From the sequence record MT446416.1: a DNA stretch of 64,000 nucleotides, one strand, 5' to 3'. The stretch is from Escherichia virus TH47. The notes under the pieces are model-generated. The model worked only from the letters and a program-made list of their open reading frames with translations. It made no database searches and was not told the DNA's origin. Made by a program: the position numbers and the translations under genes. Shown here in pieces: positions 24,966 to 47,585 of this stretch (within the stretch, counting starts at the first letter, position 1; each line of letters starts with the position of its first letter).

Positions 24966-24967
24966 TT

Positions 24968-25526: not shown

Positions 25527-25593
25527 TTTAATACTCCTTTTAGTGGGGGAGGATATCTCCCCCTATGCAAAACATTATACGCTTTATTCAGTA

Positions 25594-25857: not shown

Positions 25858-25865
25858 GGTGTATC

Positions 25866-25928
25866 TCCTGGACTTGAGGGGAAACCATTTCCCCCTCTCG
25901 ATGTAAAACATTATACGCGAATTGCGAT
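25866..25928 (-). promoter_or_regulatory. sigma70-like promoter (TTGCAT-16-TATAAT) followed by palindromic stem-loop GGGGAAAnnnTTTCCCC and RBS
   Basis: -35 at 25922-25927, -10 at 25900-25905, stem-loop ~25868-25885 (minus-strand sense). Confidence 0.55.
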
Positions 25929-26073
25929 AGTATGCAAGTACTTTTTTAAAATAGTTTTCAGTACTGAATACTTATATAATAGATACATTTATGCACCCGG
26001 TGGGTTAGATTGTTTTCATGCATATATAATAGCAAAGGGACTGACCTGAGTCAATCCATTTTTTTAATCTTTT

Positions 26074-26658
26074 TTATCGTGTTATAGTTACGGCTTTTAC
26101 ATCACGCTTTTTATAGTACTGATTCCAGATATTGCGGGTTAAACCGTAATCAAGTACTTTAATCAAGCCGTTACGATCCTGGCCGATATTCTGTTTTCTG
26201 ATATCTCTTATAGTTAGTGTTGATAAGGTATCATCAACGTGTTGTAGTGCATCAGCAAAGCGGTGCTGGCGTTCAATGGTATTACGTTTAATATTGCACT
26301 TTAATTCGTTGCACGCGTTAACGTGCTTTACGCTGCCTTTGCTTGCAGTACTCAAACGATCCATAACAATAAACATATTATCAGGATCGCTTAAATGCAT
26401 ATGCACCTTAGCAAAGTACTGTTTCATTTGAGGGCGGTCATAATCTAAAAAATTCCATACCTTACATTCAGTTTCATTTTGTTCTACACCCGCATCACAA
26501 TTCGCGACCTTGATCACTAACCGATCATTTAAAGCGAATACTATACGGGAAGAACCCGCACCGATGATCTCAAGACCAGCTAACCGACAAGCTGAAAGGA
26601 TCTCTTTGTTGGTTTCCATTTCTGACAGTGTACGGATAAATTTAGTATAATTACGCAT
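26074..26658 (-). CDS. protein-kinase-like protein (Ser/Thr kinase fold)
   Basis: Gly-rich loop IIGAGSSRIV, VIKV lysine, catalytic-loop-like IRDIRKQN, DFG-like LDYG; start MRNYTKF at 26656-26658 after AAGGAG. Confidence 0.5.
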   Translation of the reverse strand: MRNYTKFIRTLSEMETNKEILSACRLAGLEIIGAGSSRIVFALNDRLVIKVANCDAGVEQNETECKVWNFLDYDRPQMKQYFAKVHMHLSDPDNMFIVMDRLSTASKGSVKHVNACNELKCNIKRNTIERQHRFADALQHVDDTLSTLTIRDIRKQNIGQDRNGLIKVLDYGLTRNIWNQYYKKRDVKAVTITR

Positions 26659-26705
26659 TGCATTTACTCCTTGAATTGATGAAACTATATTACAGTACTT
26701 TACTA

Positions 26706-26933
26706 TCAATGGCAACTACTTTTTTTAACATTAACGGCGTGGATCACTTCCTTAGTGTTTTTAGTACTGAATACTTTTGCCGCTCCTTGTTCGACCGTGA
26801 TGCGATAGCGACCATTAACATCAACCATATTAATAAAGTCCGGCGTGCTGAATGGTGTTGTTTTACATTTCAGTACGGTTAACAGTTCCACCAGCGATGT
26901 AGTTTATTTGATACGTTTTTCTAAAGTAATCAT
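26706..26933 (-). pseudogene. small ORF with in-frame TAA at codon 10
   Basis: ATG 26931-26933 with RBS-like context; TAA at 26904-26906 in frame; downstream frame continues ...TTSLVELLTVLKCKTTPF (track ORF 26706-26891). Confidence 0.3.
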
Positions 26934-26987
26934 TTTGTTTTCCCCCGTGTTGGTATATATACATAGTACTAAAACATTTGAGTACTG

Positions 26988-27242
26988 TCAACGTGAAATT
27001 CTTTTAATAGCAGTATTATACTGCTGGTGCTCATACAAACTAATTTTACCAGTACTCTCGATAACGATTCTATTGTTAGTGTCTACATCGATAACACGCA
27101 GTTTACCGTTGCTTAACTTCCTAGGTAATATGTTACCATTAATAAACTCATTAGCAAGCTGTACGGCCTTTGTGATGATTCTCTGAGGGGCTTTATAGTG
27201 TACCCGCAAGATATTATCTTTAGATAGTTGTACCTTAATCAT
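26988..27242 (-). CDS. hypothetical protein
   Basis: 84 aa; AGGAT RBS. Confidence 0.5.
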   Translation of the reverse strand: MIKVQLSKDNILRVHYKAPQRIITKAVQLANEFINGNILPRKLSNGKLRVIDVDTNNRIVIESTGKISLYEHQQYNTAIKRISR

Positions 27243-27304
27243 TTTAGTTTATCCTATAAAAAAAGCGGGAACTGATCCCGCCGTGTTGTTAGTACTGCTA
27301 GGTA

Positions 27305-27700
27305 TTAGATAACCTGTCGGCGTTTACTGAATACAGTAACACTGTTTCCCTTGCGGTCGTGGCGGATCTCTCGTTGGTTGCGAATCAGTACACTTGGACG
27401 CTTCAAGTTAGCCAGATGATCCGCGTGAGTCCATGCATTCGAATTTACGGAAACTTTAATATCAGAACCCGCGACGAATTCATCTTGAGCGTTAAGAATT
27501 GCCGCCAGTTCTTCAGCTTGTTTTTGTTCTGCTGCTGTCAGTACTGGCTCAGGTGAATTCACAATATCAGAGATTTCTTTGAACTGTACGGCCCAGCGTT
27601 GGCCTTTCGGTGCATCTTTGCCCATGTCTTTAAATAGCTCACCTTCCTCGCGTGCAACAATACGGGCAGCTTCACGGGTAGCGTAGAATTTAGTAATCAT
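27305..27700 (-). CDS. hypothetical protein (paralog of 39218-39481)
   Basis: shared segments ATREAARIVA...FKDMG...RWAV...HDRKGN-VTV. Confidence 0.5.
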   Translation of the reverse strand: MITKFYATREAARIVAREEGELFKDMGKDAPKGQRWAVQFKEISDIVNSPEPVLTAAEQKQAEELAAILNAQDEFVAGSDIKVSVNSNAWTHADHLANLKRPSVLIRNQREIRHDRKGNSVTVFSKRRQVI

Positions 27701-27795
27701 GGTATACATCCTATTAGTTAAGTTAGTACTACAAGCGAGAGTCTATTATAAAGTACTATCTGTGTAATGTCAAATAGTACTTTAAATGGATTCTA

Positions 27796-28119
27796 TTACA
27801 TGTCTTTCTTACGTTTTACATCGTAGTAGCGAACTGTTATTTCTTTGTTAATCTCTTTTTCGATGCGGTGAATAACTTTTTCTTTCGGGTTGAAACCTAT
27901 AACGGTTTCTTTAATGATCTCCAAACCAGTGTATTCGCCTTGCGTACCGTAACCGTATGTAAAGGTTTCGTGTCCCAGGTCTTCCCAGCGGTCGCCAATT
28001 AACGCAGACACGTAGCAAGAGTGGTAAGTATTGCCGTTCCGATCAGTCCAGCGATTAACTTTAATGTCAAAGGAGGTTACAATTTTCAGTTCTACTTTCT
28101 GGGTAAGGATCATAGCCAT
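27796..28119 (-). CDS. hypothetical protein (paralog of 34364-34708)
   Basis: shared YGYG motif and C-terminal DVKRKKD[ML]. Confidence 0.5.
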   Translation of the reverse strand: MAMILTQKVELKIVTSFDIKVNRWTDRNGNTYHSCYVSALIGDRWEDLGHETFTYGYGTQGEYTGLEIIKETVIGFNPKEKVIHRIEKEINKEITVRYYDVKRKKDM

Positions 28120-28206
28120 TTTTATTTCTCTCTTTTAGTTAGGAGGGGAACCATTCCCCTCACTTGATGTAATCTATTATACAGTACTAAGATACTTTGT
28201 CAATAC

Positions 28207-28482
28207 TTAAGTATTGTAAATGTCGTGAATAGTGATAAAGTTTTTACGACCGTAAACCTGTAAATCGGTATCAATGTAGTGTTTATCTAGTACATCCTCG
28301 ACGCTTAACGCGGTGTCGTGGATATCTTCGTAGAATTGAGGATCTACAATCTTGCTTAAGTCATCCGGTGTTAACTTATCGTTAAGCCATTGCACCGCCT
28401 GGATATCTGCTTCACGTTTCCAGTCTTGCAGGTTAGTAGTCAGTACTTGCTCGATTTCGTTAGCTGTCAGTAGAATCCGCAT
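28207..28482 (-). CDS. hypothetical protein
   Basis: 91 aa; preceded by TTGACA-16-TATAAT. Confidence 0.5.
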   Translation of the reverse strand: MRILLTANEIEQVLTTNLQDWKREADIQAVQWLNDKLTPDDLSKIVDPQFYEDIHDTALSVEDVLDKHYIDTDLQVYGRKNFITIHDIYNT

Positions 28483-28536
28483 TTTAATGTTTCCTTATCA
28501 GTGGTTGATGTAAGTATTATACTCGTTTACTTTCTA

Positions 28537-28620
28537 TTGTCAATCTTTTTATCAGGGGAGTTTTTCGTATGTCTTACTCCTGGACTACTTAACGGGGTTA
28601 CTTGTTTCGTTCCCCCGTCC
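28537..28620. repeat. ~80-nt conserved element (ATCAGGGGAGTTTTTCGTATG...CCCCGTCCTGATG), copy 1 of 2
   Basis: second copy at 38537-38622; internal inverted repeats. Confidence 0.5.
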
Positions 28621-28942
28621 TGATGTAAAACATTATACTTGATTTTAAGTACAATGCAAGTACTTTTTAAAAATAGTTTTCAGTACTAGCCACCAGCAAA
28701 TAATAGATACATTTATGCACCCTGTGGGCTGATTTGTTTCTATGCGTATATAATAGCAAAGGGACTTACCGGAGTCAATCCCTTTTTTAATTATTTTTAA
28801 ACTTGTTTTGGGTTGCGATATGTGATAGCGTTCGGGTACATTTGTTTAATGTTATTCCATGCCTGGTTAACATTATAACCACTTGAGCGAATCAGTTGGT
28901 TACTACCGACACCTTGAAACACTACTTCGAATAAGAATTCTT

Positions 28943-29116
28943 TCATGCTTTCACCTCGCGATCTGCTTTACCTTTACGCCACGCTGTTGCTAATTGTTCG
29001 CGTTGCCATAAGTCGAGTGATACGTAAAGTTTTGCATTATCACCCTTCGGATATTCGCCAGTAGTACCAATCCGATAAAACAGATCTTTCAGTACTGTCA
29101 ATTCTACCTGGATCAT
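28943..29116 (-). CDS. hypothetical small protein
   Basis: start MIQVELTVLK at 29114-29116; track N-extension is cassette. Confidence 0.45.
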   Translation of the reverse strand: MIQVELTVLKDLFYRIGTTGEYPKGDNAKLYVSLDLWQREQLATAWRKGKADREVKA

Positions 29117-29134
29117 TATACTTTCCTCTTTGTT

Positions 29135-29195
29135 AGGAGGGGAACTATTCCCCTCTCGATATAAAACATTATACACTTTATTCAGTACTGTGCAA
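29135..29195 (-). promoter_or_regulatory. sigma70-like promoter (TTGCAC-16-TATAAT) plus stem-loop AGGGGAAnnnTTCCCCT
   Basis: -35 29190-29195, -10 29168-29173, stem-loop 29135-29156. Confidence 0.55.
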
Positions 29196-29202
29196 GTACT
29201 TT

Positions 29203-29415
29203 TTAATCTTTCAGCCAATGATCCTGAATGAATTTTTCACCAAATCCCTGTTTCATGGATTCTAACAGGCGTTCACGGTGAGCGTTGGCGAATTGCTCCG
29301 TACTATGCGTTACACCTGGTTGATATCTGGATTCACCATTGGGGGCGATGTATTGCACATCCCACGGTTTAGCGTTAGTATCAGACCATTTACGAACGAT
29401 TAGTTGACCTTGCAT
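29203..29415 (-). CDS. hypothetical protein
   Basis: 70 aa; GAGGAAAG RBS. Confidence 0.5.
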   Translation of the reverse strand: MQGQLIVRKWSDTNAKPWDVQYIAPNGESRYQPGVTHSTEQFANAHRERLLESMKQGFGEKFIQDHWLKD

Positions 29416-29501
29416 TTTTCTTTCCTCTTAGTGGGGAGAATCATTTCTCCCCTTCATGTAAACTATTATACAGTACTATAATCTATTGTCCAGTACTTTT
29501 T

Positions 29502-29690
29502 TTACAGTTTATGAATCAATTCTTTATCTAAGCGATAGCGTACATTATTAATAGTAACGGCATTGTTTTTAATGCTACGCTGTACTGGTCCACCAGCAAT
29601 AACAAACGTTGCCTTATTACCCCGAACAATGATAGCACTTCCTGGATTGCTGTATTCATCTTGTACTAAAATACTTGATAAGTTTTCCAT
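29502..29690 (-). CDS. hypothetical small protein
   Basis: 62 aa. Confidence 0.45.
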   Translation of the reverse strand: MENLSSILVQDEYSNPGSAIIVRGNKATFVIAGGPVQRSIKNNAVTINNVRYRLDKELIHKL

Positions 29691-29777
29691 TTTTATTTCC
29701 TCTTAGTAGGGGAAGATGTTTCCCCTTGATGTAATACAGTATACACTATCTTTCAGTACTGTCAATACTTTTTAGTA

Positions 29778-30134
29778 TTACGATAAAATCATGATAGGAT
29801 ATTCACTATCGATCAGTACTTCGAATCCAAAACCTTCGTACCATTCTTTAAGATTAAAGGCGTTATCTTCTCCCGTATCGCATTCTAAAATGATACAATC
29901 GGAATCATCAGCGGCATCAATAAAGGCATTCATTAATTCGTTACCTTCACCATTGCCCCGACTATCAGGATCAACATAAAGAGAATCAATAAACGCTACA
30001 CGGTCATAATCAAGATCCGGTGCAATGATTCCACGTTTTTCAAACCAGTACTGCAATTGTGCTACTTTGCCCTGTACTTGATAGCCAGTGATCTCGCCAT
30101 TGTCAGTAGTACGCGTGATATGTTGTATTCCCAT
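29778..30134 (-). CDS. possible GNAT-type N-acetyltransferase
   Basis: 118 aa; segment VDPDSRGNGEGNELMNAFIDAA resembles acetyl-CoA-binding motif A; weak. Confidence 0.35.
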   Translation of the reverse strand: MGIQHITRTTDNGEITGYQVQGKVAQLQYWFEKRGIIAPDLDYDRVAFIDSLYVDPDSRGNGEGNELMNAFIDAADDSDCIILECDTGEDNAFNLKEWYEGFGFEVLIDSEYPIMILS

Positions 30135-30197
30135 GATTTCTATCCTCAGTTAAGATATAAAATATTATACACTATCTTTCAGTACTGTCAATACTTT

Positions 30198-30455
30198 TTA
30201 TCTCATAGATCTATGCCAACAATTACGCGGGGGACGTTTAAAAGTACTATCATGATCCTCCTGGCAAGTTATGCAGTACATGCACCCTACAACGGCCTGG
30301 CGTCGATTCTCAGGGATTAAATCACCGCAATCATGACAATGTGTTAGTGATTCTCTTTGTGCGTTAATTTGCTTTCTAGCGTGGTTTACGGCGGCCTGAA
30401 TCACTGCGTTAATCTCGTCTTGTTCGGCCCCGTCTTTCGCGAATCCTACTGCCAT
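30198..30455 (-). CDS. TraR/DksA-family C4 zinc-finger protein
   Basis: CHDCGDLIPENRRQAVVGCMYCITCQ closely parallels TraR CEACGNPIPEARRKIFPGVTLCVECQ. Confidence 0.75.
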   Translation of the reverse strand: MAVGFAKDGAEQDEINAVIQAAVNHARKQINAQRESLTHCHDCGDLIPENRRQAVVGCMYCITCQEDHDSTFKRPPRNCWHRSMR

Positions 30456-30783
30456 TATTTTAACCTCATTATAAAAATACTATATTACTGTAATGCTACA
30501 ATAATACTACTAGTACTAATCTTATTCAAACCACATGATACTACATATCCACCAGCATTACCACGGATAGTAACGCCTTTGTACTGTCTATATAAATTCA
30601 ACTGCGTTTATTGCCTTTGATCAAGAATTGATCAGAATTATACGCCTTATGCTAAATTGATCCAGTACTTTTTGATCATTTATTGATCAATATTATACAG
30701 TTACATTTGTGCACCCTATGGGTTGGTGACGTTCTCGTCTTGATGTAAGTATTATGCCAGTACTGGATGATATTGTCAATAGA

Positions 30784-30981
30784 TTATTTTAACTTTTTTC
30801 TGTCATTGATTAATGCTTTCAGTACTATACTAATGATTTGCAATGATTCATCAATGACTATAAAATTATTATCTTTCATTAGATGATAGTTACCATTGAT
30901 ATTATATTCTAATGAGTACTGTTTACGTTTAATTTTTGATAATGTTTCTATTTGTTTTTGTACTGATTTCATGCTAATCAT
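30784..30981 (-). CDS. hypothetical small protein
   Basis: 65-aa ORF. Confidence 0.35.
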   Translation of the reverse strand: MISMKSVQKQIETLSKIKRKQYSLEYNINGNYHLMKDNNFIVIDESLQIISIVLKALINDRKKLK

Positions 30982-31087
30982 TGTTAAACGTCCTGTAACG
31001 CATTCTAACGATATAAACGGTTTAGTACTGGCATTGTATAGGGTAAATGATTAAAGCCCACCAGCGTTAACTAGTGGGCTATAATCT

Positions 31088-31237
31088 TACATCTTGCGGA
31101 TAATCTTAACAGTATCTTTCACCGATTTACCGTCTTGCTGGCATTGCTCGATCATCGCGTATTGTTCTGCGGTCAGATCCTCGCCAGTTTTTGCCAGTAC
31201 TGCATCGATGAATGAATCCAGTGCGATCATTTTATTT
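31088..31237 (-). CDS. hypothetical small protein (49 aa)
   Basis: manual translation MIALDSFIDAVLAKTGEDLTAEQYAMIEQCQQDGKSVKDTVKIIRKM; GAGAGAAATAAA upstream. Confidence 0.4.
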
Positions 31238-31320
31238 CTCTCTTAGGTTAAGTTAACTACTGTTTATAAAACTTATTATACAGTACTATCAATCTATGTC
31301 AATAGTACTGGTAATATATT

Positions 31321-31572
31321 TTATACGGGCTGTACCGCCAGTGTATTATCTGTTATAACCTGGTACATAACTTTTACAGTACTGTATGCTTCTTTGATGC
31401 TTAGCCCTTGAACTACAGGGACTTCATCAGCACCACCAGGAAGGGTACGCGAGATAACCAGTTTATCATTTTCTGAATGTACACAGTAACGATAGGTCAT
31501 CTGGCGACGGGCTAACGCATCATTCAAGTACTGTAAGTGGCGTTCTACGTTCTCGCGAGTAATACGGGTCAT
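31321..31572 (-). CDS. hypothetical protein
   Basis: start MTRITRENVERH at 31570-31572. Confidence 0.45.
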   Translation of the reverse strand: MTRITRENVERHLQYLNDALARRQMTYRYCVHSENDKLVISRTLPGGADEVPVVQGLSIKEAYSTVKVMYQVITDNTLAVQPV

Positions 31573-31608
31573 GATTGTTTCCTTAATAGTGTGGACTTGA
31601 TAAAACTT

Positions 31609-31636
31609 ATTATACAGTACTATCAATCTTTGTCAA
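31609..31636 (-). promoter_or_regulatory. consensus sigma70 promoter TTGACA-16-TATAAT
   Basis: -35 31631-31636, -10 31609-31614 on minus strand, upstream of 31321-31572. Confidence 0.55.
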
Positions 31637-31655
31637 TAGTACTGTGATAATATTT

Positions 31656-31868
31656 TTAGTTAATGATAGTCAGTGTAAAATTGTAATCCCCTGCCTGGTA
31701 TAGTACTTTGTCGCCGAACGTACCAACACGTTTCATATTGCAATAGATACCCATAACACTTTTTACATCTTTGATATTCCGAACGCCTGTGATATCCTTG
31801 TTGAAATTTTCATGATCAGAAAATAAAACTTGTTTTGCATTTTTCAGTACAGTGCAGATATTAGCCAT
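31656..31868 (-). CDS. hypothetical protein
   Basis: 70 aa. Confidence 0.5.
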   Translation of the reverse strand: MANICTVLKNAKQVLFSDHENFNKDITGVRNIKDVKSVMGIYCNMKRVGTFGDKVLYQAGDYNFTLTIIN

Positions 31869-31962
31869 TTTGTTTTCTCTTTGTTAGTGGGGAGAATCAT
31901 TTCTCCCCTTGATGTAACTTATTATACAGTACTATAATCTATTGTCAAACTATTTTTTAATA

Positions 31963-32301
31963 TTATTCGAAATCTTCTGGACCGGACTGATAATCATCTT
32001 CACCGTATGCACTTTCTAACTTCTCGCCAGTGTGATCATCAGTTAGTGAGTCATCCTCATAGTTCACGTCTACGCCCGTGATGTAAAACTGGCTATCGTC
32101 TGGATCATTGAAATTAATTTTCTGAATGTTTACAATAACTGTATTGATTCCCAGGACACCGCCATCAGCCGTTACAAAGTACTGATAGTTTTCACAACCG
32201 CCTGAATTGAAACCGTAATTAATTTCGGCCCGACCATCATTTAAACGCAGTGCCTGGGCGATGATTTCGTTTTCAAAGTTAGATTGAGCGATTGAGATCA
32301 T
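31963..32301 (-). CDS. hypothetical acidic protein
   Basis: 112 aa, D/E-rich C-terminus. Confidence 0.5.
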   Translation of the reverse strand: MISIAQSNFENEIIAQALRLNDGRAEINYGFNSGGCENYQYFVTADGGVLGINTVIVNIQKINFNDPDDSQFYITGVDVNYEDDSLTDDHTGEKLESAYGEDDYQSGPEDFE

Positions 32302-32365
32302 TTTGTAGTTCCTTGTTTGCTTAAGATGGGACTATTATATAATAGCCCCGTTGTGTTGTCTAGTA

Positions 32366-32833
32366 CTATTTCACGTTAATTTCAAAGTACTGCTCTTTGA
32401 TGTTTTCCTGTTGGTAAATCTCGTTTAATGCTTTAAGATCTAACACCTGTTTACCTGCGGCCCGAATATACTTGTTAAGAGTCGCTAACAGCTTCTCAGG
32501 CGTGTTTGTAGTCTTACGTGTTGGGATCTTATCGTGTCCCATAGCGTAGTACTGTTTACGTGGAATAGTACTGATAACGCTGCGGTACGGTTCCATGATC
32601 AGCTTGTCTGTGTATTCGTCGCTATCCCCGAACTTCATACCGTGGATCGCAAAGGTCATCATCATGCGGTCGTTATCGCGGATATTGTGGGGGCAATCGG
32701 CAAGCTCGCGAGTCAGTGACATAGTGATCCCCACGTCGCCACCCAGCGGTAAAGGTCGGGCGATAAAGAAACCGTTAGGGAATACTTTCAGGAAGTTTTC
32801 TTGTACTGCTGCGACGAATTCGATGCTATTCAT
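32366..32833 (-). CDS. hypothetical protein
   Basis: 155 aa; AAGGAAATG context. Confidence 0.55.
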   Translation of the reverse strand: MNSIEFVAAVQENFLKVFPNGFFIARPLPLGGDVGITMSLTRELADCPHNIRDNDRMMMTFAIHGMKFGDSDEYTDKLIMEPYRSVISTIPRKQYYAMGHDKIPTRKTTNTPEKLLATLNKYIRAAGKQVLDLKALNEIYQQENIKEQYFEINVK

Positions 32834-33499
32834 AATTCATTTCCTTAATTAGTGGGGGAAGTTGTTTCCCCTCTCGATGAAAAACATTATACGCCAATTG
32901 AGATAGTTTGCAAGTACTTTTTAAAAATAGTTTTCAGTACTCAATACTTATATAATAGATACACTTATGCACCCGGTGGGCTAGTGAGCTATCTCTCAAT
33001 GAATATATAATAGCAAAATGGCTGACCGAAGTCAACCACTTTTTTCATTTATTTTTTAGCTTTTAGAATCGCCGCCTTTCGCGTCATGCCTTGCTTAATG
33101 TACTCCTTTACTTTCGCTTTACGTGCTTTCGCTTTATTTGCTTTCGTAAATGCCGAACAACTTTTATAGTTTAAACCTGTTGGATTCATTTAAATCACCA
33201 TAAAGAATAGATAGGTTACTAACAACGCCGCGATCAATGCACCGATCACCGCCGAACTGTAATAAGCAAATGATTTCATTTTTTAGCCTGGAAGTAATGT
33301 TTAATTTGTGCGGCGGTCAGTGCACAATTTCGCAGGAAGTTTTCTGTATAACTGCGGCGAGTACTGAAAGAAAATTGACCTTTGCCGTTGCCGATAGTAA
33401 CATCAAACCGAGCGTTGTATTGTTTCATTTTGATTCTCCTTGTATCAGGGAGGAACCATTTCCCCCCCCTCTATGTAAAACATTATACAGTACTGAAAA

Positions 33500-33709
33500 C
33501 TAATTGCAAGTATTATTTTCTAAAAAATGATTGTATGCTGAATCAACCACTCTTTCGATAACATACGCCAACGGCCCGTATCCAACTACATGACTACAAT
33601 AGAAAGGACTACGATTAGAATCATCGTATGCAAATACTTTTTCAGGATCTGCATCAATCACATACATATTAACCTCTAAGATGTCGATCTTATCCTGTAC
33701 AGTAAGCAT
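33500..33709 (-). CDS. hypothetical small protein
   Basis: start MLTVQDKIDIL at 33707-33709, abutting stop of 33711-33962. Confidence 0.4.
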   Translation of the reverse strand: MLTVQDKIDILEVNMYVIDADPEKVFAYDDSNRSPFYCSHVVGYGPLAYVIERVVDSAYNHFLENNTCN

Positions 33710-33710
33710 A

Positions 33711-33962
33711 TTAATTACCTTTTTCAATGTTTGATAATTCTTCCCAAAAACTTCCCGGATCAATATTATCATAATCCCCTGTAACGTCCTGTAACGCATT
33801 CTCAGGCTGTTTAACGGCTGGGGTAGCCATAGCCATTGCCTGGACTTGTTCGACGCTATAACGCTCATATAGGCGGCATTCTTCCGGTGTTAACATAGCA
33901 TCAATGCGTTTCATTGGTTTAATGATGCTTTCAACTTCATTCAGTACTTGATTAACGTTCAT
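33711..33962 (-). CDS. hypothetical protein
   Basis: 83 aa; GAGGAT RBS. Confidence 0.5.
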   Translation of the reverse strand: MNVNQVLNEVESIIKPMKRIDAMLTPEECRLYERYSVEQVQAMAMATPAVKQPENALQDVTGDYDNIDPGSFWEELSNIEKGN

Positions 33963-34013
33963 GGTATAATCCTCAATATAAGCGGCCTAAATCGACCGCT
34001 AACGATGTTTTGA

Positions 34014-34283
34014 TTAATAGGTGTATGGTTGACGCTCAAACAATGATTGCACGTTGTACGCCCCGCTAATGGGCTTCGCTGGTATGTCGATCTTATATTT
34101 CTCACGCTTAAAGATAATAAAACGGCAATTGTTCTTAACATCAAAATTGATTGAACGTTCCAGGAGTTTTCCATCGTGCACAAATACAAGATAACCGCTC
34201 GCTACTTGTTTTGTAGTACTGGTTGCAACCATTGACCGCCTAACATGCGTACCTGCATCGATTAAAGTACTGATATTTTTCAT
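34014..34283 (-). CDS. hypothetical protein
   Basis: 89 aa; GAGGATAG RBS. Confidence 0.5.
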   Translation of the reverse strand: MKNISTLIDAGTHVRRSMVATSTTKQVASGYLVFVHDGKLLERSINFDVKNNCRFIIFKREKYKIDIPAKPISGAYNVQSLFERQPYTY

Positions 34284-34363
34284 TTTACTATCCTCTTAAT
34301 TTGATTTAATTTCTTTCCCCTATGCAGACACTATATCAAAGTATCTGCATAAAGTAAAGCTAA

Positions 34364-34708
34364 TTAAAGATCTTTTTTGCGTTTAACATCAGTTACCGAA
34401 CTGTAAACAGTGATATTATTGTCACGGCAAAAACGGGAAAGATAAGAACCGCGTAAAAACTCTTTACCTTCCATATTAATAACCTTGCTAAATTCTTCCA
34501 TTGCTACAGTGTCAAAGTGATCCCCATAGCCATATTGGAACGGCACGTTTACTACTTCAATAAATTCGCCATTGATTTCAACATCTACCGTTAAAGAGAA
34601 ATAAGTATTACCATAAGACGCCTGGAACCAACGCCGGGCTGCAATATGTACAACTTCAACAGAAGACAGGTTGATGTTTTGTGCTGTGATAGTGTTGATG
34701 ATAGCCAT
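34364..34708 (-). CDS. hypothetical protein (paralog of 27796-28119)
   Basis: 114 aa; YGYG motif, C-term DVKRKKDL. Confidence 0.5.
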   Translation of the reverse strand: MAIINTITAQNINLSSVEVVHIAARRWFQASYGNTYFSLTVDVEINGEFIEVVNVPFQYGYGDHFDTVAMEEFSKVINMEGKEFLRGSYLSRFCRDNNITVYSSVTDVKRKKDL

Positions 34709-34790
34709 TTTTTGTTTCCTCTTAGTGGGGGAACCATTCCCCTTGATGTAATGTATTATACTTTATCTGATTTACTTTGCAAGTACTTTT

Positions 34791-35018
34791 TTAATTTAAT
34801 TCATCCAGGCAAAGGATACGTTCTACACCTAAATCAGTTAAACTAATAGACGGCACTTGATAGGTTTCAATGTATGCTACACTTGCCCACTGACCGAACT
34901 CATTAACGGCCCAGGTATCCATTGCAAAATGCAATTCCGCACCTGCCTTGTTGGTAATGACTGCAACTACTTGTTCGTTGCCAGTAGTACCAGATACGCG
35001 AGTAATGATAATAGCCAT
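34791..35018 (-). CDS. hypothetical small protein
   Basis: start MAIIITRVSG at 35016-35018; track extension is cassette. Confidence 0.45.
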   Translation of the reverse strand: MAIIITRVSGTTGNEQVVAVITNKAGAELHFAMDTWAVNEFGQWASVAYIETYQVPSISLTDLGVERILCLDELN

Positions 35019-35305
35019 TGTTTTGATTCCTTTTATTTGGAGGGGAAACTGTTTCCCCCCCTCTCGATGTAAAACATTATACGCTAATCTCTTTATAGTG
35101 CAAGTACTTTTTATTACTTTTTGCAAAATACTTTAAACGCTCTCAATCGCTCTATAACAACATTAACGCCACCAGCTAGGGAAATGCATCAGATATTCAG
35201 TTTAATGCGTTAGAATCGTTTCTAGGCGGTGCTGGTGGCCTGGTAAACGGTAAACACAAAAAATCCCACTGTTTAAGGTGGGCTAGTGATTCAGTACTTT
35301 AATTG

Positions 35306-35788
35306 TTATGCTTCAACTTTGCGATGAGCTTCGATCCATTCCTCGCGAGTCAATCCGCTTTCTTTGATAGCATCCAGTACTACCGAAATGCAGTTACCAC
35401 GCACCGGAATCAGATATTCTTCCCCGTTATCAAGTACTACCGCTACACGTTCTTGAATCCATTTTTTAGGCTTAGACTCCGGCTTATCTTCCCCATACTT
35501 AACCGCCAGGGCTTTTTGTGCCATCTCGGTAACTACTTCCATATCCAGCCCATCTACTACCGCCTGGATACTTTCAATTGTTGCTTGTAGTTCTGCTTCA
35601 CGGGCCGCCTTCGCTGCTTCAATCTCTGCCGCTTTATTTGCTTGTAGTTCTTTCGCAGTACTGTAAGCGATGTTAAAATTATTGCGAACCGCTTTCATGG
35701 TATCGTTATCCAGTTCAGCCAGGATCTCTGCCGCTACGTTAGTTTCATTTGCTACCAGTGCTTTGATGAATGATTTGATGTTAGCCAT
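35306..35788 (-). CDS. hypothetical protein, Ala/Glu-rich (coiled-coil-like)
   Basis: start MANIKSFIKAL after GAGGAT; followed by hairpin terminator CCCAC-N-GTGGG + T-run (~35245-35280). Confidence 0.5.
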   Translation of the reverse strand: MANIKSFIKALVANETNVAAEILAELDNDTMKAVRNNFNIAYSTAKELQANKAAEIEAAKAAREAELQATIESIQAVVDGLDMEVVTEMAQKALAVKYGEDKPESKPKKWIQERVAVVLDNGEEYLIPVRGNCISVVLDAIKESGLTREEWIEAHRKVEA

Positions 35789-35939
35789 TAGATAAATCCT
35801 CAATTAAAGTTTAGTTTACGTTCATTAGTGTATCAAAGTTTAATCGACGTGTCCAGTTTTTCGTTCGACTTACTGGCGGTCTACTTAGTGTTCCCCGTCT
35901 TGATGTAATACATTCTACGCCTTTTTGCGGTAATGTCAA

Positions 35940-36500
35940 CTATCTTTTTGAATATTTTTTAATGTATCTCATAATCGCTGGCGGTGTAGTATTATACCTT
36001 TCAGCTAGTATAATTGAGTTAGCATCATGTGAATATGGTTTATACAGTTGTATAACTTCGTTAATCTCTTTTTCAGTTAGTTTTGTCCTAACATGCCTTA
36101 TACCTTCACTCTCATACTTCACTATTTTTTTAATAGGCGTTGCGTCGTCATGTATTCCGGTATCGTGTGCGTGTATTATGTTTTCCTTTCCGGTTGACCA
36201 TTCCAAATTACTGTAATGATTATTACTTTTATTTCTATCCTTATGATTAACCTGGACTTTCTTTCTTTTTGTTTTTTGTGCCCATTCTATTTGTGCAGGT
36301 GTCGGAGGGGGTAGATAGTTGGATGCAACCAATCTTTGAACATACTCAAAATGTTTTGATTTGTCTTCTCTTACAAGCGTTAATCTATGATACCCATCAG
36401 GGCGAATTGTTGGAGAAAGAATATTACTACCATAACGCCTAACATCCCCATACTCACTAATTTCATAAAGGGGATTCTCTTTTAATTGTTTCCATTCCAT
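35940..36500 (-). CDS. HNH-family homing endonuclease
   Basis: N-terminal YEISEYGDVRR...GYHRLTL and LEW-like pattern typical of phage HNH homing endonucleases. Confidence 0.65.
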   Translation of the reverse strand: MEWKQLKENPLYEISEYGDVRRYGSNILSPTIRPDGYHRLTLVREDKSKHFEYVQRLVASNYLPPPTPAQIEWAQKTKRKKVQVNHKDRNKSNNHYSNLEWSTGKENIIHAHDTGIHDDATPIKKIVKYESEGIRHVRTKLTEKEINEVIQLYKPYSHDANSIILAERYNTTPPAIMRYIKKYSKR

Positions 36501-36581
36501 TGATTTGATCCTTTTAGTTTCTCCTTTGTATTATATCACACAAAAACAAAAAAAGCCCACTGTTTAAGGTGGGCTAGTGAT

Positions 36582-36881
36582 TTATAAACAGTTAATTACT
36601 CCTGTGTGCGTTACTTTCTCAGTATCCATTACAGTGACCGAACCGCGTTTAGTACTGGCATCATAATAAATTGTTGTGCTACCTTTCGCATCTTCTTCAT
36701 GGAACGGGCCGTTTTTAAATGCTTCTGGCTGGATCTCTAGATCCTTTAAAACAATATCGCCAGTTCTTTCTTCGGTCATTGCAACAGTGCACTGAATGAA
36801 TTTTTCACTACTTACATCTAACGACGCATTAACAGCGAAAGAGGAAACAGATAAAGCCAGGGAGATGATTGCTACTTTCAT
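36582..36881 (-). CDS. small secreted/periplasmic protein (signal peptide)
   Basis: start MKVAIISLALSVSSFAVNA; hydrophobic core + AxA-like site. Confidence 0.5.
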   Translation of the reverse strand: MKVAIISLALSVSSFAVNASLDVSSEKFIQCTVAMTEERTGDIVLKDLEIQPEAFKNGPFHEEDAKGSTTIYYDASTKRGSVTVMDTEKVTHTGVINCL

Positions 36882-37122
36882 TTGATTATCCTTAGTTACC
36901 AGGGGAACCGTTCCCCCTATGTAAAACATTATACGCGTTTAAAAACTATTATCAAGTACTTTAATATAAAAGTATTTGAAAAATAATTGTTGACAACTGC
37001 ATCCAGTACTGGCATAATACCTACATAAAGACAAAACAGTCTCCAACCCACCGGGTGCATAGATCCGTCTATTAAATGATTCAGTACTGCAAAATAAAGG
37101 GGATCAATTGATCCCCTCTGTA

Positions 37123-37344
37123 TTACTTAGTAAGGTATAAACAGAAGTCACCTTTATTTGCTACGCCGCCAGTGTAACGCGATGAATAGTTAGAAATATC
37201 TTGTACTTCTGCTATTACCAGTGTATCATCATTCATTTCGTCGCAGAAGCAAACGGCTGGATCTTTTACGCCGATATTGTCGGCATGTTCCCGCATAGAT
37301 TTAACCAGTGCTTCCAGTTGAGAAAGAGTAGTGATATTAGCCAT
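37123..37344 (-). CDS. hypothetical small protein
   Basis: start MANITTLSQLEAL at 37342-37344. Confidence 0.45.
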   Translation of the reverse strand: MANITTLSQLEALVKSMREHADNIGVKDPAVCFCDEMNDDTLVIAEVQDISNYSSRYTGGVANKGDFCLYLTK

Positions 37345-37534
37345 TGTATTTTCCTCATTACCAGGGAGAACCATTTCTCCCCTCTATGTAAACTATTATA
37401 CAGTACTGGAAACTAATTGCAAGTACTTAATGGTAAGATCCGCAACGGTTGCAGTAGTTTTATTTGTTCGATCATGATGCTTACTCCTGGTTAAAGGCGG
37501 GAACCATTCCCCGCCATTGTCACAGTACTGAATA

Positions 37535-37774
37535 TTACATTCCAACCATTGCAGCACGGATCGCAGTAGTGCTATACTTGAATCCGTCCGGCGTTGTAGT
37601 AGTACCGTTGGCTTTTAATCTGCGGTACATACATTCCGCTGCAATATCTTTCGTTTTACTTTGAGCGATGCAATTTTGAGCAATCCGGTACAATGATTCA
37701 TCGTTATTGATCCAAAGGCTTACATTCCAATGAGTTTTGTTTTTGTGTCCGTTGTAAGTTTTAGTACTAGCCAT
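37535..37774 (-). CDS. hypothetical protein (paralog of 39563-39790)
   Basis: shared NGHKN-HWNVSLWINNDESLY...AAMVGM. Confidence 0.5.
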   Translation of the reverse strand: MASTKTYNGHKNKTHWNVSLWINNDESLYRIAQNCIAQSKTKDIAAECMYRRLKANGTTTTPDGFKYSTTAIRAAMVGM

Positions 37775-37863
37775 TTTTTAATCCTCTTATATAGTGGGGA
37801 ACTATTCCCCACCTGATGTAAAGTATTATACGCTTTTAAACTTAGTTTGCAAGTACTTTTTAA

Positions 37864-38475
37864 TTAATATGCGATTGATTCTACTACGCCATCAATAACA
37901 TTGAATTGATATTCGTTACCCTCAATCAGTGCCGTAATGTTTTCAGTAGTGAATTGATCCTTATATGCATTCTCTAAATCACGGTAAAACTTGCGTGACA
38001 ATTCACGAATAGTATCAGTTAGTAGTTTCTCAAGCTCATTAACTAACGTTTCTTGTTTTGAGGTTAAATCAGTGTAAGCCGATTCAATGTACCCGCTTAC
38101 AGTGTTCTCATGCGAGTAATGGGAGTGAGATCGCTTTACACTCATCGCCAAATCATCTTCATTCAGCAGGTGACGGATTGAGCGATACTTAGTTAATGCT
38201 CTTACCTTGCGTAAAAACTTCACTGCGTCAACGTGGTCAGTACTGATTGATGCACCGTCACCCTGGGACCAAAAACCACTGAATTGTATTTCAGCGTCAT
38301 TAATGCCATATTCTGGTAGTACTGTTTCTTTATAGTATTCAATTTCACTTTCAGAAAAATAATCGTCGTTTGTGTTTTTTTCACGTTCCCGAACCAGTTC
38401 GATAGCTGACGTTTTTTGTTCTGCGTTCAATTCAGAAAAATCCATAACATAAGTAGTAGTAGTGATAGTTTTCAT
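37864..38475 (-). CDS. hypothetical protein
   Basis: 203 aa; GAGGG RBS. Confidence 0.55.
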   Translation of the reverse strand: MKTITTTTYVMDFSELNAEQKTSAIELVREREKNTNDDYFSESEIEYYKETVLPEYGINDAEIQFSGFWSQGDGASISTDHVDAVKFLRKVRALTKYRSIRHLLNEDDLAMSVKRSHSHYSHENTVSGYIESAYTDLTSKQETLVNELEKLLTDTIRELSRKFYRDLENAYKDQFTTENITALIEGNEYQFNVIDGVVESIAY

Positions 38476-38899
38476 TTTGTAACCCTCATTCAGTAGTTGA
38501 TGTAAGTATTATACGCTTTTAAAAACAATTGTCAAACTATTTTATCAGGGGAGTTTTTCGTATGCCTTACTCCTGGGCTACTCAACGGGGAGTTACTTAT
38601 TTCGTTCCCCGTCCTGATGTAATACATTATACGCCGTTAAACATAGTATGCAAGTACTTTTTAAAATAGTTTTCAGTACTGAATAGTAAAAAGGTATTGA
38701 CAGCACTATCCAGTACTGGCATAATATACCCCATGACAACAGCTAACCCACCGGGTGCACAATTGTAACTGTACTAAACTACTTTTTCTATAGATACACT
38801 CCCGCACCCCGTGGGCCAAATTGTTCGTTTCAATAGATACATTATGCCAGTACTGACAAAATAAGTCAATACTGGCAATTGTAAAGATTTGTAAACTAC

Positions 38900-39130
38900 T
38901 TATACTGCAATCGCGTCCAGGCTATAATAATAATAAGTGCCGTATTGGTGTACTTTATTACCTTTTATTTCAGTACTGAATGAATCCGAACGATTAGCAT
39001 ATGATGTTAATTTAAAGTACTTTGCTTTACTAATACGTTGCCATACACCGCAGATCCGCTGTAAGTAAGTAGTTTTATTAGTGGTAGTATCTTTTACGGT
39101 TTTAACTTCGGTCATATACATATTAGCCAT
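38900..39130 (-). CDS. hypothetical protein
   Basis: start MANMYMTEV at 39128-39130. Confidence 0.45.
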   Translation of the reverse strand: MANMYMTEVKTVKDTTTNKTTYLQRICGVWQRISKAKYFKLTSYANRSDSFSTEIKGNKVHQYGTYYYYSLDAIAV

Positions 39131-39217
39131 TTTTTTAATCCTCTTATGTAGTGGGGAAGTATTCCCCATCTGATATAAAGTATTATACGCTTTTAAACTT
39201 AGTATGCAAGTACTTTT

Positions 39218-39481
39218 TTATAGTACTGCAATCTTTTTAGTACGGTACACGGTAACGCGATTGCCCTTGCGGTCGTGCTTTATTTCTACTACTCGCCGCG
39301 ATACACTATCAGGACTTTTTAACGCCGCCAACCAGTACTGTAAAGATCTGGCTTTACTTTGCTTTACTACCGCCCAACGTTTACCACGTTCCGATTGTCC
39401 GCCCATATCTTTAAACGTCGCCCCGTCCAGACGTGCGGCGATCCGTGCTTGTTCACGCGTCACAAAGTACATAATATTCAT
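39218..39481 (-). CDS. hypothetical protein (paralog of 27305-27700)
   Basis: 87 aa. Confidence 0.5.
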   Translation of the reverse strand: MNIMYFVTREQARIAARLDGATFKDMGGQSERGKRWAVVKQSKARSLQYWLAALKSPDSVSRRVVEIKHDRKGNRVTVYRTKKIAVL

Positions 39482-39562
39482 GCTGTTACCCCATCGTTGA
39501 CGTATAAAAGAAATCTATTATAAAGTACTATCACCGTGCAATAGTACTTTAAATATATTCTA

Positions 39563-39790
39563 TTACATTCCAACCATCGCCGCACGCACGCTTGATTTGC
39601 TATAACGTGCCCCATCAGGCGTGTGAGTACCTAAAAGGCGTAACATCCGCTCAACCGCTTTATCTCGCGTGTTGGTGCTTTTAATACTTTCCAGGGCCAA
39701 TTGGTACAGTGATTCATCGTTATTGATCCAAAGGCTTACATTCCAATGGTTGTAGTTTTTATGGCCGTTGAAAGTTTTAGTAGTAGTCAT
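39563..39790 (-). CDS. hypothetical protein (paralog of 37535-37774)
   Basis: 75 aa. Confidence 0.5.
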   Translation of the reverse strand: MTTTKTFNGHKNYNHWNVSLWINNDESLYQLALESIKSTNTRDKAVERMLRLLGTHTPDGARYSKSSVRAAMVGM

Positions 39791-39883
39791 TTTTAATTCC
39801 TCTTAAGTGCAGCGGGAACCATTCCCGCTCTCGATGTAATACATTATACGCTATTTGATAGTACTGTCAAACTAATTTTTAAC

Positions 39884-40246
39884 TTATTCGTAAATTTTGC
39901 CACTGTCAGCCCATACCAGGAAACGAGGCATATTATCCCATGCATCTTGTTTTAAATTTAAACCGTGTAATACTTCTGTACTTTCCATTCCTGGTACTGG
40001 TTTACTATACACCGCGAACATTTCACCCATATACTGATAAGCCATCGTTAAATCACTGGCGATCATCTTATGGATCATCGCATCAAGCATCACGGTAGCG
40101 GCGTATTGTTCACGCTTAAGCGGCAACATTGCAATAAGTCCACGATAAGCTGAAATGTGAATTTTTACCGTTTCTGCCGGAAGATCTTTCATCTCGTCGC
40201 GGAAGTTAACCAGGTTAGCAATAATTTTATTGATTTGTGTCGCCAT
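39884..40246 (-). CDS. hypothetical protein (first gene downstream of the 2-kb control region)
   Basis: 120 aa; preceded by TTGCAT-N16-TATAAT and stem-loop. Confidence 0.55.
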   Translation of the reverse strand: MATQINKIIANLVNFRDEMKDLPAETVKIHISAYRGLIAMLPLKREQYAATVMLDAMIHKMIASDLTMAYQYMGEMFAVYSKPVPGMESTEVLHGLNLKQDAWDNMPRFLVWADSGKIYE

Positions 40247-40380
40247 CGTTTTTAATCTCTCTTAAAGTGCAGCGGGAACCATTCCCGCTCTCGATGTAAT
40301 ACATTATACGCCGTTAAACATAGTATGCAAGTACTTTCTACAAATACTTTTAAAATAGTTTTCTTTCTATATAGGGGAAC

Positions 40381-40436
40381 TATCTTTCAGTACTATCTTT
40401 CAGTACTATCATTCAGTACTATCATTCAGTACTGAA
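40381..40436. repeat. four tandem 12-13-bp repeats (TTCAGTACTATCWT)
   Basis: ctttcagtactat x2, cattcagtactat x2 read directly. Confidence 0.7.
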
Positions 40437-40596
40437 TCAATCCACTAAATCATCCCTATACCCCGTAAAACGGCCTCAGACGCATTCTAACGCATTAATA
40501 CACCTAAGCTATACATTTGCACCATTCCAATCATTCCAGGGCTTTACGGGCCGTTGAAACGCGTTAAATTATTTTCAATTATTTTGTTTTTAGGTA

Positions 40597-40624
40597 TTGA
40601 CTTGATCCTGAAAAAGCGTATAAT
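40597..40624 (+). promoter_or_regulatory. plus-strand sigma70-like promoter TTGACT-16-TATAAT
   Basis: -35 40597-40602, -10 40619-40624; no convincing ORF downstream. Confidence 0.5.
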
Positions 40625-40937
40625 TACTACATAAGCCGGACACAAGGCACTAACCCACAGGGTGCGGAATTACGCCCAAAATTCAAGATATAAAAAAAGG
40701 ATACACTCCCGCACCCTAGCAGGTCAACGCACTTTCTCAGTACTGAAATATAGTACCATAGTACTTGCCAGGATAGCAAGCAAATTAATTAAAACTTTTT
40801 TGCTTCCAGGGTATTGCTTTATTTTTTCAGTACTGTATAATAGTTTCATCAAGTCGAGAAAGACTCAAGCCCACCGGGTGCATAGTTACGCCCAAAATTC
40901 AGTACTGAAAAAATTTTTAAAATATCTGTCCAGGCCG

Positions 40938-40966
40938 TTGACATTGCCCCCAGTTTATAAGATAAT
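40938..40966 (+). promoter_or_regulatory. plus-strand sigma70-like promoter TTGACA-17-GATAAT
   Basis: -35 40938-40943, -10 40961-40966; followed by palindromic GGGGAAnnnTCCCC hairpins and iteron-like repeats. Confidence 0.5.
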
Positions 40967-41060
40967 GATTCCAGATTCAGAAAAATCTAACTCCAGATAC
41001 TGCGGGGAAACTATCCCCACGCGGTAGGGGAACTATTGGAAAAAACAAAATAAAATTTTG

Positions 41061-41175
41061 ATTTAGCCGTCTATACTTCCAGACGTGTAACCATCTAGCC
41101 GTTTAGCCGTCCAAACGTCTAGCCATCCAGCCATCCAGAAATCTAGCCGTTTAGCCGTCTAGATGGATAGCCATC
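41061..41175. repeat. iteron-like direct repeats (TAGCCGT / TAGCCAT / CCAGCCAT)
   Basis: at least 8 copies of 7-8-bp units within ~115 bp, locally GC-richer. Confidence 0.6.
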
Positions 41176-42109
41176 TTTACTTCCATACTTCTGGAGGTCT
41201 AGACATATCTACGTCCAAAATCCACCCAGGGTTACTACACCCAAAATCCGTCAGTACTATACCATAGATCTATCTTTTGAAAGGGAGTATTCAGTACTGC
41301 CATCATAGCCCTCACTATGTTACCCTAGGAGGATGAAGACTATCATGTAGTACTGAATACTGTTAGAGGGAATCCACCAGCTTGTGCTGGTGGCATAATG
41401 CTTTAGATTAAAATCAGTACTGACACCATTCTGTTAATATCAGTACTGTTATTACGATTTTCATATGAGGTTCAAAAAGATGTACCACCACAGGAGGAAC
41501 TATCTTTTCTGTACTGTCTCACGACAGGAGGTAGAGTAAATGAATTGTTCGCAGCAACTCATCTCTCTATGTAGAACATTATACAGTACTGAATCATAAT
41601 GTCAATAACTTTCTTTCACCATTCAGTACTGATATTCTTGAGAACTACCCGTCTACAAACATCATTATATCCCACAAATCATAAACGTCCCAACGTAAAT
41701 TTCAACTTTCGAAGATCCAACTTTTATTTCATAGGTACTCCAAAATTTTTAGGATCGAGATTTAGGATGGAGTACTAACCAACTTTTTGCTGGAGCCTCA
41801 AGGGGTAATTGAATTTTACCCCGAAGGGTAAAAGGGTAATTGAAATTAAGGTGAAAGTAATAATTCAGTACTAATCATTGCGTGATTACTTTTGATTACA
41901 TTTGATGTAATTTGCAAAATGGAAAAGGAGCTTGGAAACTAAAAAGTACGGTAGACTTCCTCTGCCTACTTAGTGGGATATCGACACCTTCAGTACTGAA
42001 TACTTTTGGGGCAGTACTGCTACGTTCTTGATTAAACGTGCACATTCCTGTACTCTATTACACTCTAGTACTCACTACTGATCAGTACTGATCACTACAG
42101 TGATTATAA

Positions 42110-47577: not shown

Positions 47578-47585
47578 TAATAGGT

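Follow-up and report, generated by a model that had tools for sequence, protein, structure and literature searches.

A promoter-proximal RNA element with a covarying hairpin-plus-pseudoknot fold in Escherichia virus TH47 and its probable homologue in the T7 A1 leader

Two distant sites in a 64,000-nucleotide (nt) stretch of DNA from Escherichia virus TH47 (record MT446416.1; the whole stretch is referred to as the window) carry copies of a sequence element of about 80 nt, which raises the question whether such an element works as an RNA, works as a DNA site, or is a leftover of duplication. We found that it constitutes the first 70-80 nt of an early minus-strand transcript made by the host sigma-70 RNA polymerase, and we are highly confident that it is real and non-coding and that it acts as a sense-strand RNA with a hairpin-plus-pseudoknot fold. 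A preliminary description of this DNA had reported two copies of about 80 nt. Both exist, but their positions had been placed a few bases off, the likeness between them extends over about 200 nt, and a third copy at 35906-35840 had been missed.

Copy A occupies positions 28548-28626 and copy B positions 38541-38620, both on the minus strand and about 93% alike; on the plus strand the string ATCAGGGGAG...GTCCTGATG corresponds to 28551-28625 and 38544-38619. A 26-nt core pattern matched only these two copies in the window, with 0.00 matches expected from shuffled sequences. The covariance model, built from 18 distinct full-length variants, recovers both (97.8 bits for copy A, 107.9 bits for copy B) and adds the diverged copy C, which lacks the first hairpin (HP1) and lies at 35906-35840, likewise on the minus strand (23.4 bits, E 0.003); this copy is kept in the phages PBECO4, slurp01, SD-6_S16 and G17. 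With a structure descriptor of the pseudoknot, exactly three sites were found in the 64-kb window, namely A, B and C, versus 0.02 in shuffles. As evidenced by the alignment of the flanks, the likeness of copies A and B runs through an upstream promoter, the element of about 78 nt, a downstream promoter and a short 5' untranslated region, and it stops at the ribosome-binding sites, beyond which the genes are unrelated.

How is this RNA folded? The preliminary description had taken internal inverted repeats as a sign of structure, and the folding energy of the minus strand, better than that of shuffles with z scores of -3.6 for copy A and -2.5 for copy B, bears this out, as do the covarying pairs described below. 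The key fold, however, is a pseudoknot that is invisible to a simple reading of inverted repeats. From the 5' end the motif consists of HP1, the string (N)UAAGUA, the 5' strand of stem 1 (S1) with the sequence G-N-C, a loop of 2 nt, the 4-nt 5' strand of stem 2 (S2), the string (N)UAA, the G-N-C of the S1 3' strand, the string RNACGAAAA(A) and finally the S2 3' strand. This topology is that of an H-type pseudoknot with an S1 of 3 bp, an S2 of 4-5 bp and an A-rich third loop (ACGAAAAAC). HP1 is followed by AAGUAG, the conserved single-stranded stretch ahead of the pseudoknot being (U)UAAGUA, and the conserved unpaired bases are AAGUA, UAA and GAAAA. The whole element is enclosed, in copies A and B, by a stem of 6 bp (AUCAGG/CCUGAU) that starts 2-3 nt from the 5' end of the RNA. 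In copy A this closing stem joins AUCAGG at 28624-28619 to CCUGAU at 28556-28551, HP1 spans 28618-28592, and the pseudoknot core spans 28588-28557, with S1 formed by 28585-28583 and 28573-28571 and S2 by 28580-28577 and 28560-28557. The corresponding parts of copy B are a closing stem of 38618-38613 with 38549-38544, HP1 at 38612-38585 and a core at 38581-38550. In copy C the core lies at 35884-35853 with GAC/GUC as S1 and CCAG/CUGG as S2, and the enclosing stem is GACG/CGUC. The two predicted stems are sterically compatible, and the covariation by itself fits their simultaneous as well as their alternating formation.

The pairing was assessed by counts on 28 distinct cores. The middle pair of S1 is AU in 17 cores, CG in 5 and UA in 5, with one mismatch. 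For S2, pair 1 is CG in 20 and GC in 8, pair 2 is CG in 19, GC in 8 and UA in 1, pair 3 is UA in 16, AU in 11 and UG in 1, and pair 4 is GC in all 28, so that variants such as GGAG/CUCC, GGUG/CACC, CCAG/CUGG, CCUG/CAGG and CUUG/CAAG are seen. S1 is possibly longer by a G-C pair (GC 23, GU 4) and a U-A pair. When the partner columns were slid by 1-3 positions as a control, just 17-36% of the cells paired. Note that the 28 cores were selected for complementarity, and the 99.5% of paired positions is hence a result of construction. The retrieval pattern itself contains the invariant core bases only, with N at the stem positions, and leaves the S1 middle pair and S2 unconstrained. It yielded 35 distinct matches, of which 26 have the S1 middle position paired; all 26 lie in a promoter-proximal leader context, and in a descriptor scan their S2 strands are complementary as well. 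The nine matches with unpaired S1 comprise eight unrelated sequences and EmilieFrey, which is a true homologue with one mismatch in S1. As changes in the state of S1 are seen inside the T7-like lineage and inside the Asteriusvirus lineage alike, the covariation represents several independent events.

The stem of HP1 is also maintained while its tip varies in length and sequence. RNAalifold, applied to the T7-like sequences, recovered S2 but not the pseudoknot and mis-registered HP1, and the covariation of this hairpin was therefore taken directly from the sequences, where the T7-likes show CCGG/CCGG, CCAG/CUGG, CCAC/GUGG and CGGG/CCCG. Several changes from G-C to G-U are moreover compatible only with pairing of the transcribed RNA, that is, of the sense RNA from the minus strand. 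Folding and covariance analysis, which the preliminary description had recommended, thus speaks for the element, since the copies fold better than shuffles and base pairs covary across distant phages. The possibility that the copies are remnants of a larger segmental duplication without conserved structure is ruled out, with the core kept through compensatory changes in unrelated families including T7.

Such a fold invites the question of how far the element is distributed. Asteriusvirus jumbo coliphages, for example PBECO4, 121Q and G17, match the window at 90-95% identity. By blastn, a few phages from two unrelated groups of about 145 kb carry the element at 88-94% identity, namely muut, outra and EmilieFrey in Justusliebigvirus and A7_1, A73, W70 and A5-4 in Vequintavirinae. 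Five of these loci were read (muut, outra, EmilieFrey, A7_1 and A73), and each has the order promoter, element, promoter, small gene, with genes that differ. Three copies, of which two are divergent, are present in phage EJP2. A search of IMG/VR with the pattern of core bases matched a jumbo phage of 366 kb as well as T7-like contigs.

In T7 itself (NC_001604) the core is found at 552-586 in the leader of the A1 promoter (A1 +1 = 498), between A1 and A2, and it ends 2 nt ahead of the A2 -35 box (589-594). The Asteriusvirus-derived model arrived at this place independently, with T7 528-595 as its best match (16 bits, E 0.025). When T7 535-592 was used as a blastn query, 486 phage records were returned with one place per record, and among those listed the locus is mostly unannotated; their hosts are Escherichia, Klebsiella, Salmonella, Yersinia, Enterobacter, Citrobacter, Shigella, Serratia and Cronobacter, and one record is an Erwinia jumbo phage. 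One T7-like contig, L021, reads UUAAGUAGUC-AG-CCUG-UAAGACAUACGAAAAAC-AGG where copy A of the window reads UUAAGUAGUC-CA-GGAG-UAAGACAUACGAAAAAC-UCC. Only the 2-nt loop and stem 2 differ, and the pairing of stem 2 is retained. We consider it very probable that the element is homologous to the core in the T7 A1 leader. T7-likes have a single copy of the motif, behind the first of their tandem promoters only, and the T7 A1 RNA likewise begins with a 5' stem.

The T7-like leaders show further features. T7 has a boxA further along the same A1 leader. In two T7-like contigs from IMG/VR, L051 (4116-4185) and L043 (5391-5460), no promoter follows the pseudoknot; about 20 nt on there is a boxA (CGCUCUUUAACAA or UGCUCUUUAAAAA) and then the first gene. 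In T7 (L026) a hairpin GGUC-UAACGAAACCU-GACC at 788-806 stands directly 5' of the boxA at 813-825, and the string AACGAAAC is common to this hairpin and the HP1 loop of copies A and B, which may be a coincidence or a second shared leader feature.

The promoters define both the strand and the position of the element in the transcript. The preliminary description had each copy sandwiched between two promoters, and these were found for A and B (P1 and P2), but on the minus strand, which is the functional one. P1 of copy A (28659-28632, TTGCAT-16-TATAAT, repeat family D1-D3) has its likely start at about 28626-28624, and P2 of the same copy (28543-28516, TTGACA-16-TATAAT) agrees with the consensus at 12/12 positions. 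For copy B, P1 is TTGCAT-16-TATAAT at 38653-38626 and P2, TTGACA-16-TATAAT at 38535-38508, is a perfect consensus. Copy C is preceded by a P1 at 35939-35912 (TTGACA-16-TAGAAT) and followed by a weak promoter-like site at 35836-35808 (TTGATA-17-TAAACT), all on the minus strand. Copies A and B begin 2-3 nt past the predicted sigma-70 start site of their P1, and all three window copies and all homologues begin at, or at most about 60 nt from, the start site of a sigma-70 promoter. The genes downstream, again on the minus strand, encode proteins of 91 amino acids (28482-28207, phrog_14947) for copy A, 203 amino acids (38475-37864, phrog_5162) for copy B and 160 amino acids (35788-35306, phrog_27871) for copy C. 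As these belong to three different PHROGs, that is, to unrelated families, the element is not a gene-specific operator. In 58 of 64 distinct contexts the next promoter is found no more than 70 nt past the element. Between the core and the following -35 box there are 2 nt in T7-likes, 13-15 nt in Asteriusvirus and 21-36 nt elsewhere, a variation that does not suit a phased DNA site. Several copies stand at the head of a transcription unit, directly after a terminator, and strong intrinsic terminators are located 1-4 genes further downstream.

The wider setting is a dense minus-strand array of small genes at 24-41.6 kb, in which each gene has a sigma-70 promoter followed by a GC hairpin and a ribosome-binding site; in related genomes the same region is the genome end, inside the direct terminal repeat. 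Near-identical cassettes of early promoter plus 5' hairpin recur throughout it as repeat families D1-D5 with 9-16 copies each, and the minus strand of 24300-41650 can be described as an array of 13-16 such cassettes. Seven cassette leaders open with CAUCGAGAGGG, the initial transcribed sequence of T7 A1, where 0.21 would be expected, and at the level of sequence this suggests promoter-leader modules common to T7-like and jumbo phages.

Several other repeats were observed in the window. The 8-bp palindrome CAGTACTG occurs 65 times versus 0.89 expected, for example at 24444, 25959, 29183, 38674 and 41415-41448, and it often falls within a promoter spacer (AGTACTGTATAAT) or immediately upstream of a -35 box (AAAAAGTACTTGCA); it may be the target of a regulator or a site linked to methylation or restriction. 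The 13-nt motif GCCCACNGGGTGC has nine occurrences on both strands (24889, 25993, 28717, 32969, 37046, 38746, 38804, 40653 and 40869) versus 0.06 expected. It is always intergenic, with copies that precede the promoters of element copies A and B by 60-150 nt. On the plus strand a good promoter-like site at 38697-38725, TTGACA-17-CATAAT with a TG, faces away from copy B and points into a gene-poor stretch with two GCCCACNGGGTGC motifs; it may drive a plus-strand transcript. An intergenic module of about 110 nt is repeated at 24872-24979, 25976-26083, 28700-28807 and 32999-33079 and also occurs in 58869-63323. It carries a hairpin (of the GGGACTTACCGGAGTCAATCCC type or the CTGACCGAAGTCAACC type) flanked by T-runs on either side, falls into families D12, D18 and D19 with up to nine copies, and looks like a bidirectional terminator as judged from its sequence. 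An array with a period of 8 nt, TAGCCGTC, with about 12 units and 64% matches, lies at 41064-41162 in a region rich in CAGTACTG and could represent iterons or a repetitive coding segment. Finally, paralogous genes form tandem arrays at 46411-54420, 5155-6652, 7191-8027 and 19120-19865; six to seven array units of about 1.2 kb have the N-terminal coding string ATGTTACCTTTTG..AGAATG in common, and the shorter paralogue arrays have periods of about 440, 360 and 446 bp.

Is the element a known RNA? Rfam 15 gave nothing at gathering score across the window, and nothing at E<=10 for 121 nt around copy A, three homologous loci and the T7 A1-A3 leader. ARAGORN detected no tRNA or tmRNA in the entire window, and no conserved open reading frame (ORF) was found on either strand of the element. 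Neither the window form nor the T7 form had a blastn match in 5,426 E. coli genomes, and pattern scans of GTDB genomes, two in all, were either empty or turned up chance matches without complementary stems. The boxA sequence (YGCUCUUUAACAA) shows no excess in the window and none is present on the minus strand near the three copies. No U-run and no intrinsic terminator follow the element, and its reading as an intrinsic terminator was dropped on the missing U-run. In the literature on T7 leader RNA, on the element sequence and on Asteriusvirus non-coding RNAs we found no description of it, with older subscription papers on T7 beyond our reach.

Further candidate identities were tried and rejected. 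The strings CAGGACG and CAGGAG resemble the repeats of CsrB and would suggest a CsrA sponge, but the GGA is not retained: the EJP2 copy has GGUG instead, copy C has CCAG and all T7-type copies have CCUG. An AGGAG within S2 of copies A and B could be read as a masked Shine-Dalgarno or standby site, but the purine strand switches side in copy C and the T7-likes. A hammerhead or pistol ribozyme, suggested by CUGAU, GAAA and GUUAAGUAG, was dismissed for core motifs that do not fit and the lack of a model match. Mimicry of the type I-E CRISPR repeat, with which the 8-mer CGGGGAAC is common, fails on the order of the stem strands, as compared by eye. Homology to the put RNAs of phage HK022 was dropped as well, with no covariance-model match there.

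What, then, might the leader RNA do? The invariance of its loop bases implies a specific binding partner, and as the carriers have mainly enterobacterial hosts and early genes transcribed by the host polymerase in common, this partner is probably a host component. By analogy with HK022 put RNA, we tentatively favor a role in cis, exerted co-transcriptionally on the elongation complex of the host polymerase, and we rank it first among the explanations considered while regarding it as a possibility well below even chances. The pseudoknot would fold while emerging from the polymerase and would then bind some conserved component of the host, with the transcribing RNA polymerase or its elongation factors as the most plausible candidates. 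The bound polymerase might elongate differently, with fewer pauses or terminations, or with easier passage through the occupied promoter and later terminators. A sigma-dependent pause at the -10 element of the downstream promoter could provide the interval that the RNA needs for folding and binding. Parallels to put in position, size, copy number and the following -10 element would favor this action in cis, and it would fit the T7-like contigs with a boxA about 20 nt past the pseudoknot.

A number of points weigh against it. The element resembles put neither in sequence nor in fold, and in the early region of HK022 (22-40.7 kb) the covariance model finds nothing better than E of about 5. The window copies are without a nearby boxA, and the restriction of the motif to the first leader in T7-likes suits a single trans-acting RNA equally well. 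In vitro, transcription from A1 by the host polymerase ends efficiently at the early terminator TE, and the transcripts are also subject to Rho, which argues against a strong factor-independent antiterminator. A simple hairpin that prevents backtracking would, for its part, need no conserved loop sequences.

Two other explanations rank next and are each unlikely, though to be taken seriously. The element might be a 5' stabilizer or processing barrier, a closed pseudoknotted domain that guards the early transcript from attack that depends on its 5' end, by RppH and by scanning RNase E, and would then be an elaborate version of the simple 5' hairpin in other early cassettes. The closing stem 2-3 nt from the predicted 5' end is in keeping with this, as are the neighboring early genes, all with a promoter and an immediate GC hairpin (D1-D5), and the 5' stem at the start of the T7 A1 RNA; but any stable hairpin would suffice for the purpose, which leaves the invariant loop bases and the exact geometry across families unexplained. 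Furthermore, the second promoter yields a gene transcript without the element, and in T7 the leader is separated from the coding RNAs at the RNase III site R0.3. With a similarly small probability, the leader RNA might be made abundantly from strong early promoters and act in trans as a decoy or sponge, binding and titrating some protein of the host, for instance a ribonuclease, a ribosomal protein, an RNA chaperone or a defense sensor. Its compact fold with conserved unpaired nucleotides would suit this role, and so would the presence of several copies per genome, in the terminal-repeat region of related genomes, the single copy of T7-likes in the first leader, and the sporadic, horizontal spread across phage families. 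Yet the element has no terminator or other defined 3' end and no likeness to a host RNA or Rfam family that it could mimic, and the version with CsrA sites fails as GGA is not conserved.

The remaining explanations follow at a distance. An H-type pseudoknot with an A-rich third loop and invariant unpaired bases is typical of the preQ1-I, SAM-II and guanidine-III aptamers, and with the fold backed by pair counts a riboswitch-like sensor of a small molecule that reports the state of the host at the onset of infection comes to mind. We hold it to be improbable: there is no expression platform, neither a terminator nor a sequestered ribosome-binding site, but a promoter instead; the gene downstream has a promoter of its own, the purine-rich strand of S2 swaps sides between lineages, and no Rfam aptamer matches even at E<=10. 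Still less probable is a function at the level of DNA only, be it an UP element or regulator site of the downstream promoter, a PeSL-like recombination cassette, or a neutral remnant of duplication. In T7 a GAAAAAC run is located at -47 to -41 of A2, which is where a proximal UP subsite would sit. The window is moreover rich in repeated promoter cassettes that probably recombine (PMC2839356, PMC4122927). The distance from the core to the -35 box nevertheless varies from 2 to 36 nt, the compensatory two-sided changes and the one-strand G-U pairs are signatures of RNA pairing, and conservation across four phage groups excludes a neutral remnant. The idea of a short peptide, encoded on either strand, retains hardly any probability and comes last. 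A plus-strand ATG and one divergent EJP2 copy with AGGUG-8 nt-AUG on the sense strand may be cited for it, but the preliminary description was right to doubt a peptide: the ORF from the plus-strand ATG comprises 7 codons in one copy and 46 in the other, length and frame differing between copies, the minus-strand frames contain stops, the lengths of the indels among homologues are not divisible by three, and a sense-strand start codon is absent from most copies.

Few systems are used as much in molecular biology as T7 with its A1 promoter. A pseudoknot with covarying stems that the A1 leader has in common with unrelated jumbo and 145-kb coliphages would be an RNA family new to Rfam. It is conceivable, though we would not yet wager on it, that a widespread and undescribed class of promoter-proximal pseudoknot RNAs serves virulent enterobacterial phages, from T7 to jumbo phages of 350 kb, in reprogramming the transcription machinery of the host, or another of its core factors, during the first seconds of infection; if so, it has gone unnoticed in the T7 A1 leader. 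The element would offer a testable lead to how host RNA polymerase, or RNA metabolism, is handled by virulent phages as infection sets in. With its small size of about 35-80 nt it is easy to mutate in T7 and could serve as a defined 5' leader part in synthetic biology. The comparison also reveals an exchange of early promoter-leader cassettes among phage families that differ greatly from one another.

Among known systems, the put RNAs of HK022, putL and putR, are RNAs of about 70 nt located after early promoters, occur twice per genome and act as antiterminators in cis by binding the host RNA polymerase (PMC9378689). The element is likewise a structured non-coding RNA of about 70 nt just past an early promoter of the host polymerase, present in several copies per genome and without a dedicated gene. 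While putL carries a -10-like pause element (PMC9378689), a real -10 follows here; and while put consists of two long stem-loops and a triplex and belongs to temperate lambdoid phages, the element combines a hairpin with an H-type pseudoknot and resides in virulent phages. With the boxA-boxB leaders of lambda nut and rrn it has in common that it is a promoter-proximal leader RNA, structured in part, and in some T7-likes a boxA follows the pseudoknot. Unlike these leaders, the three window copies are without a boxA nearby, and a pseudoknot takes the place of the boxB hairpin.

The PeSL cassettes of T4-type phages are promoter-terminator composites, modules of early promoter and stem-loop that shuffle small ORFs (PMC2839356, PMC4122927). 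At 24-41.6 kb of the window, early promoters with hairpins similarly flank small variable genes in repeated form, the genes downstream differ between copies and phages, and the element with its promoters behaves as one cassette that has been moved between phage families. It differs from PeSL in that its structure lies downstream of the promoter, is without a U-run and is not the terminator of an upstream gene, in its greater length as an RNA whose pseudoknot covaries and whose loops are conserved, and in its occurrence in an Asteriusvirus and in T7-like podoviruses. In its two short stems, a first loop of 2 nt, an A-rich last loop and its location in a 5' leader the element resembles the preQ1-I riboswitch class and the autoregulatory pseudoknot of T4 gene 32, but it shows no covariance-model match, has no expression platform and is tied to no single gene. 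The antisense RNAs C4 of phages P1 and P7 and CI of P4 are also small structured phage RNAs in an early leader transcript, from which they are cut out; in contrast to the element, they belong to temperate phages and serve immunity, and neither an Rfam match to C4 nor a complementary target was identified for the element. The nearest analogues in function are put and nut/boxA, in genomic behavior PeSL and in fold the small H-type pseudoknots of leaders. Tests of homology to these were all negative, and the element is best described as a promoter-proximal structured leader RNA that may form a new class once its partner is known.

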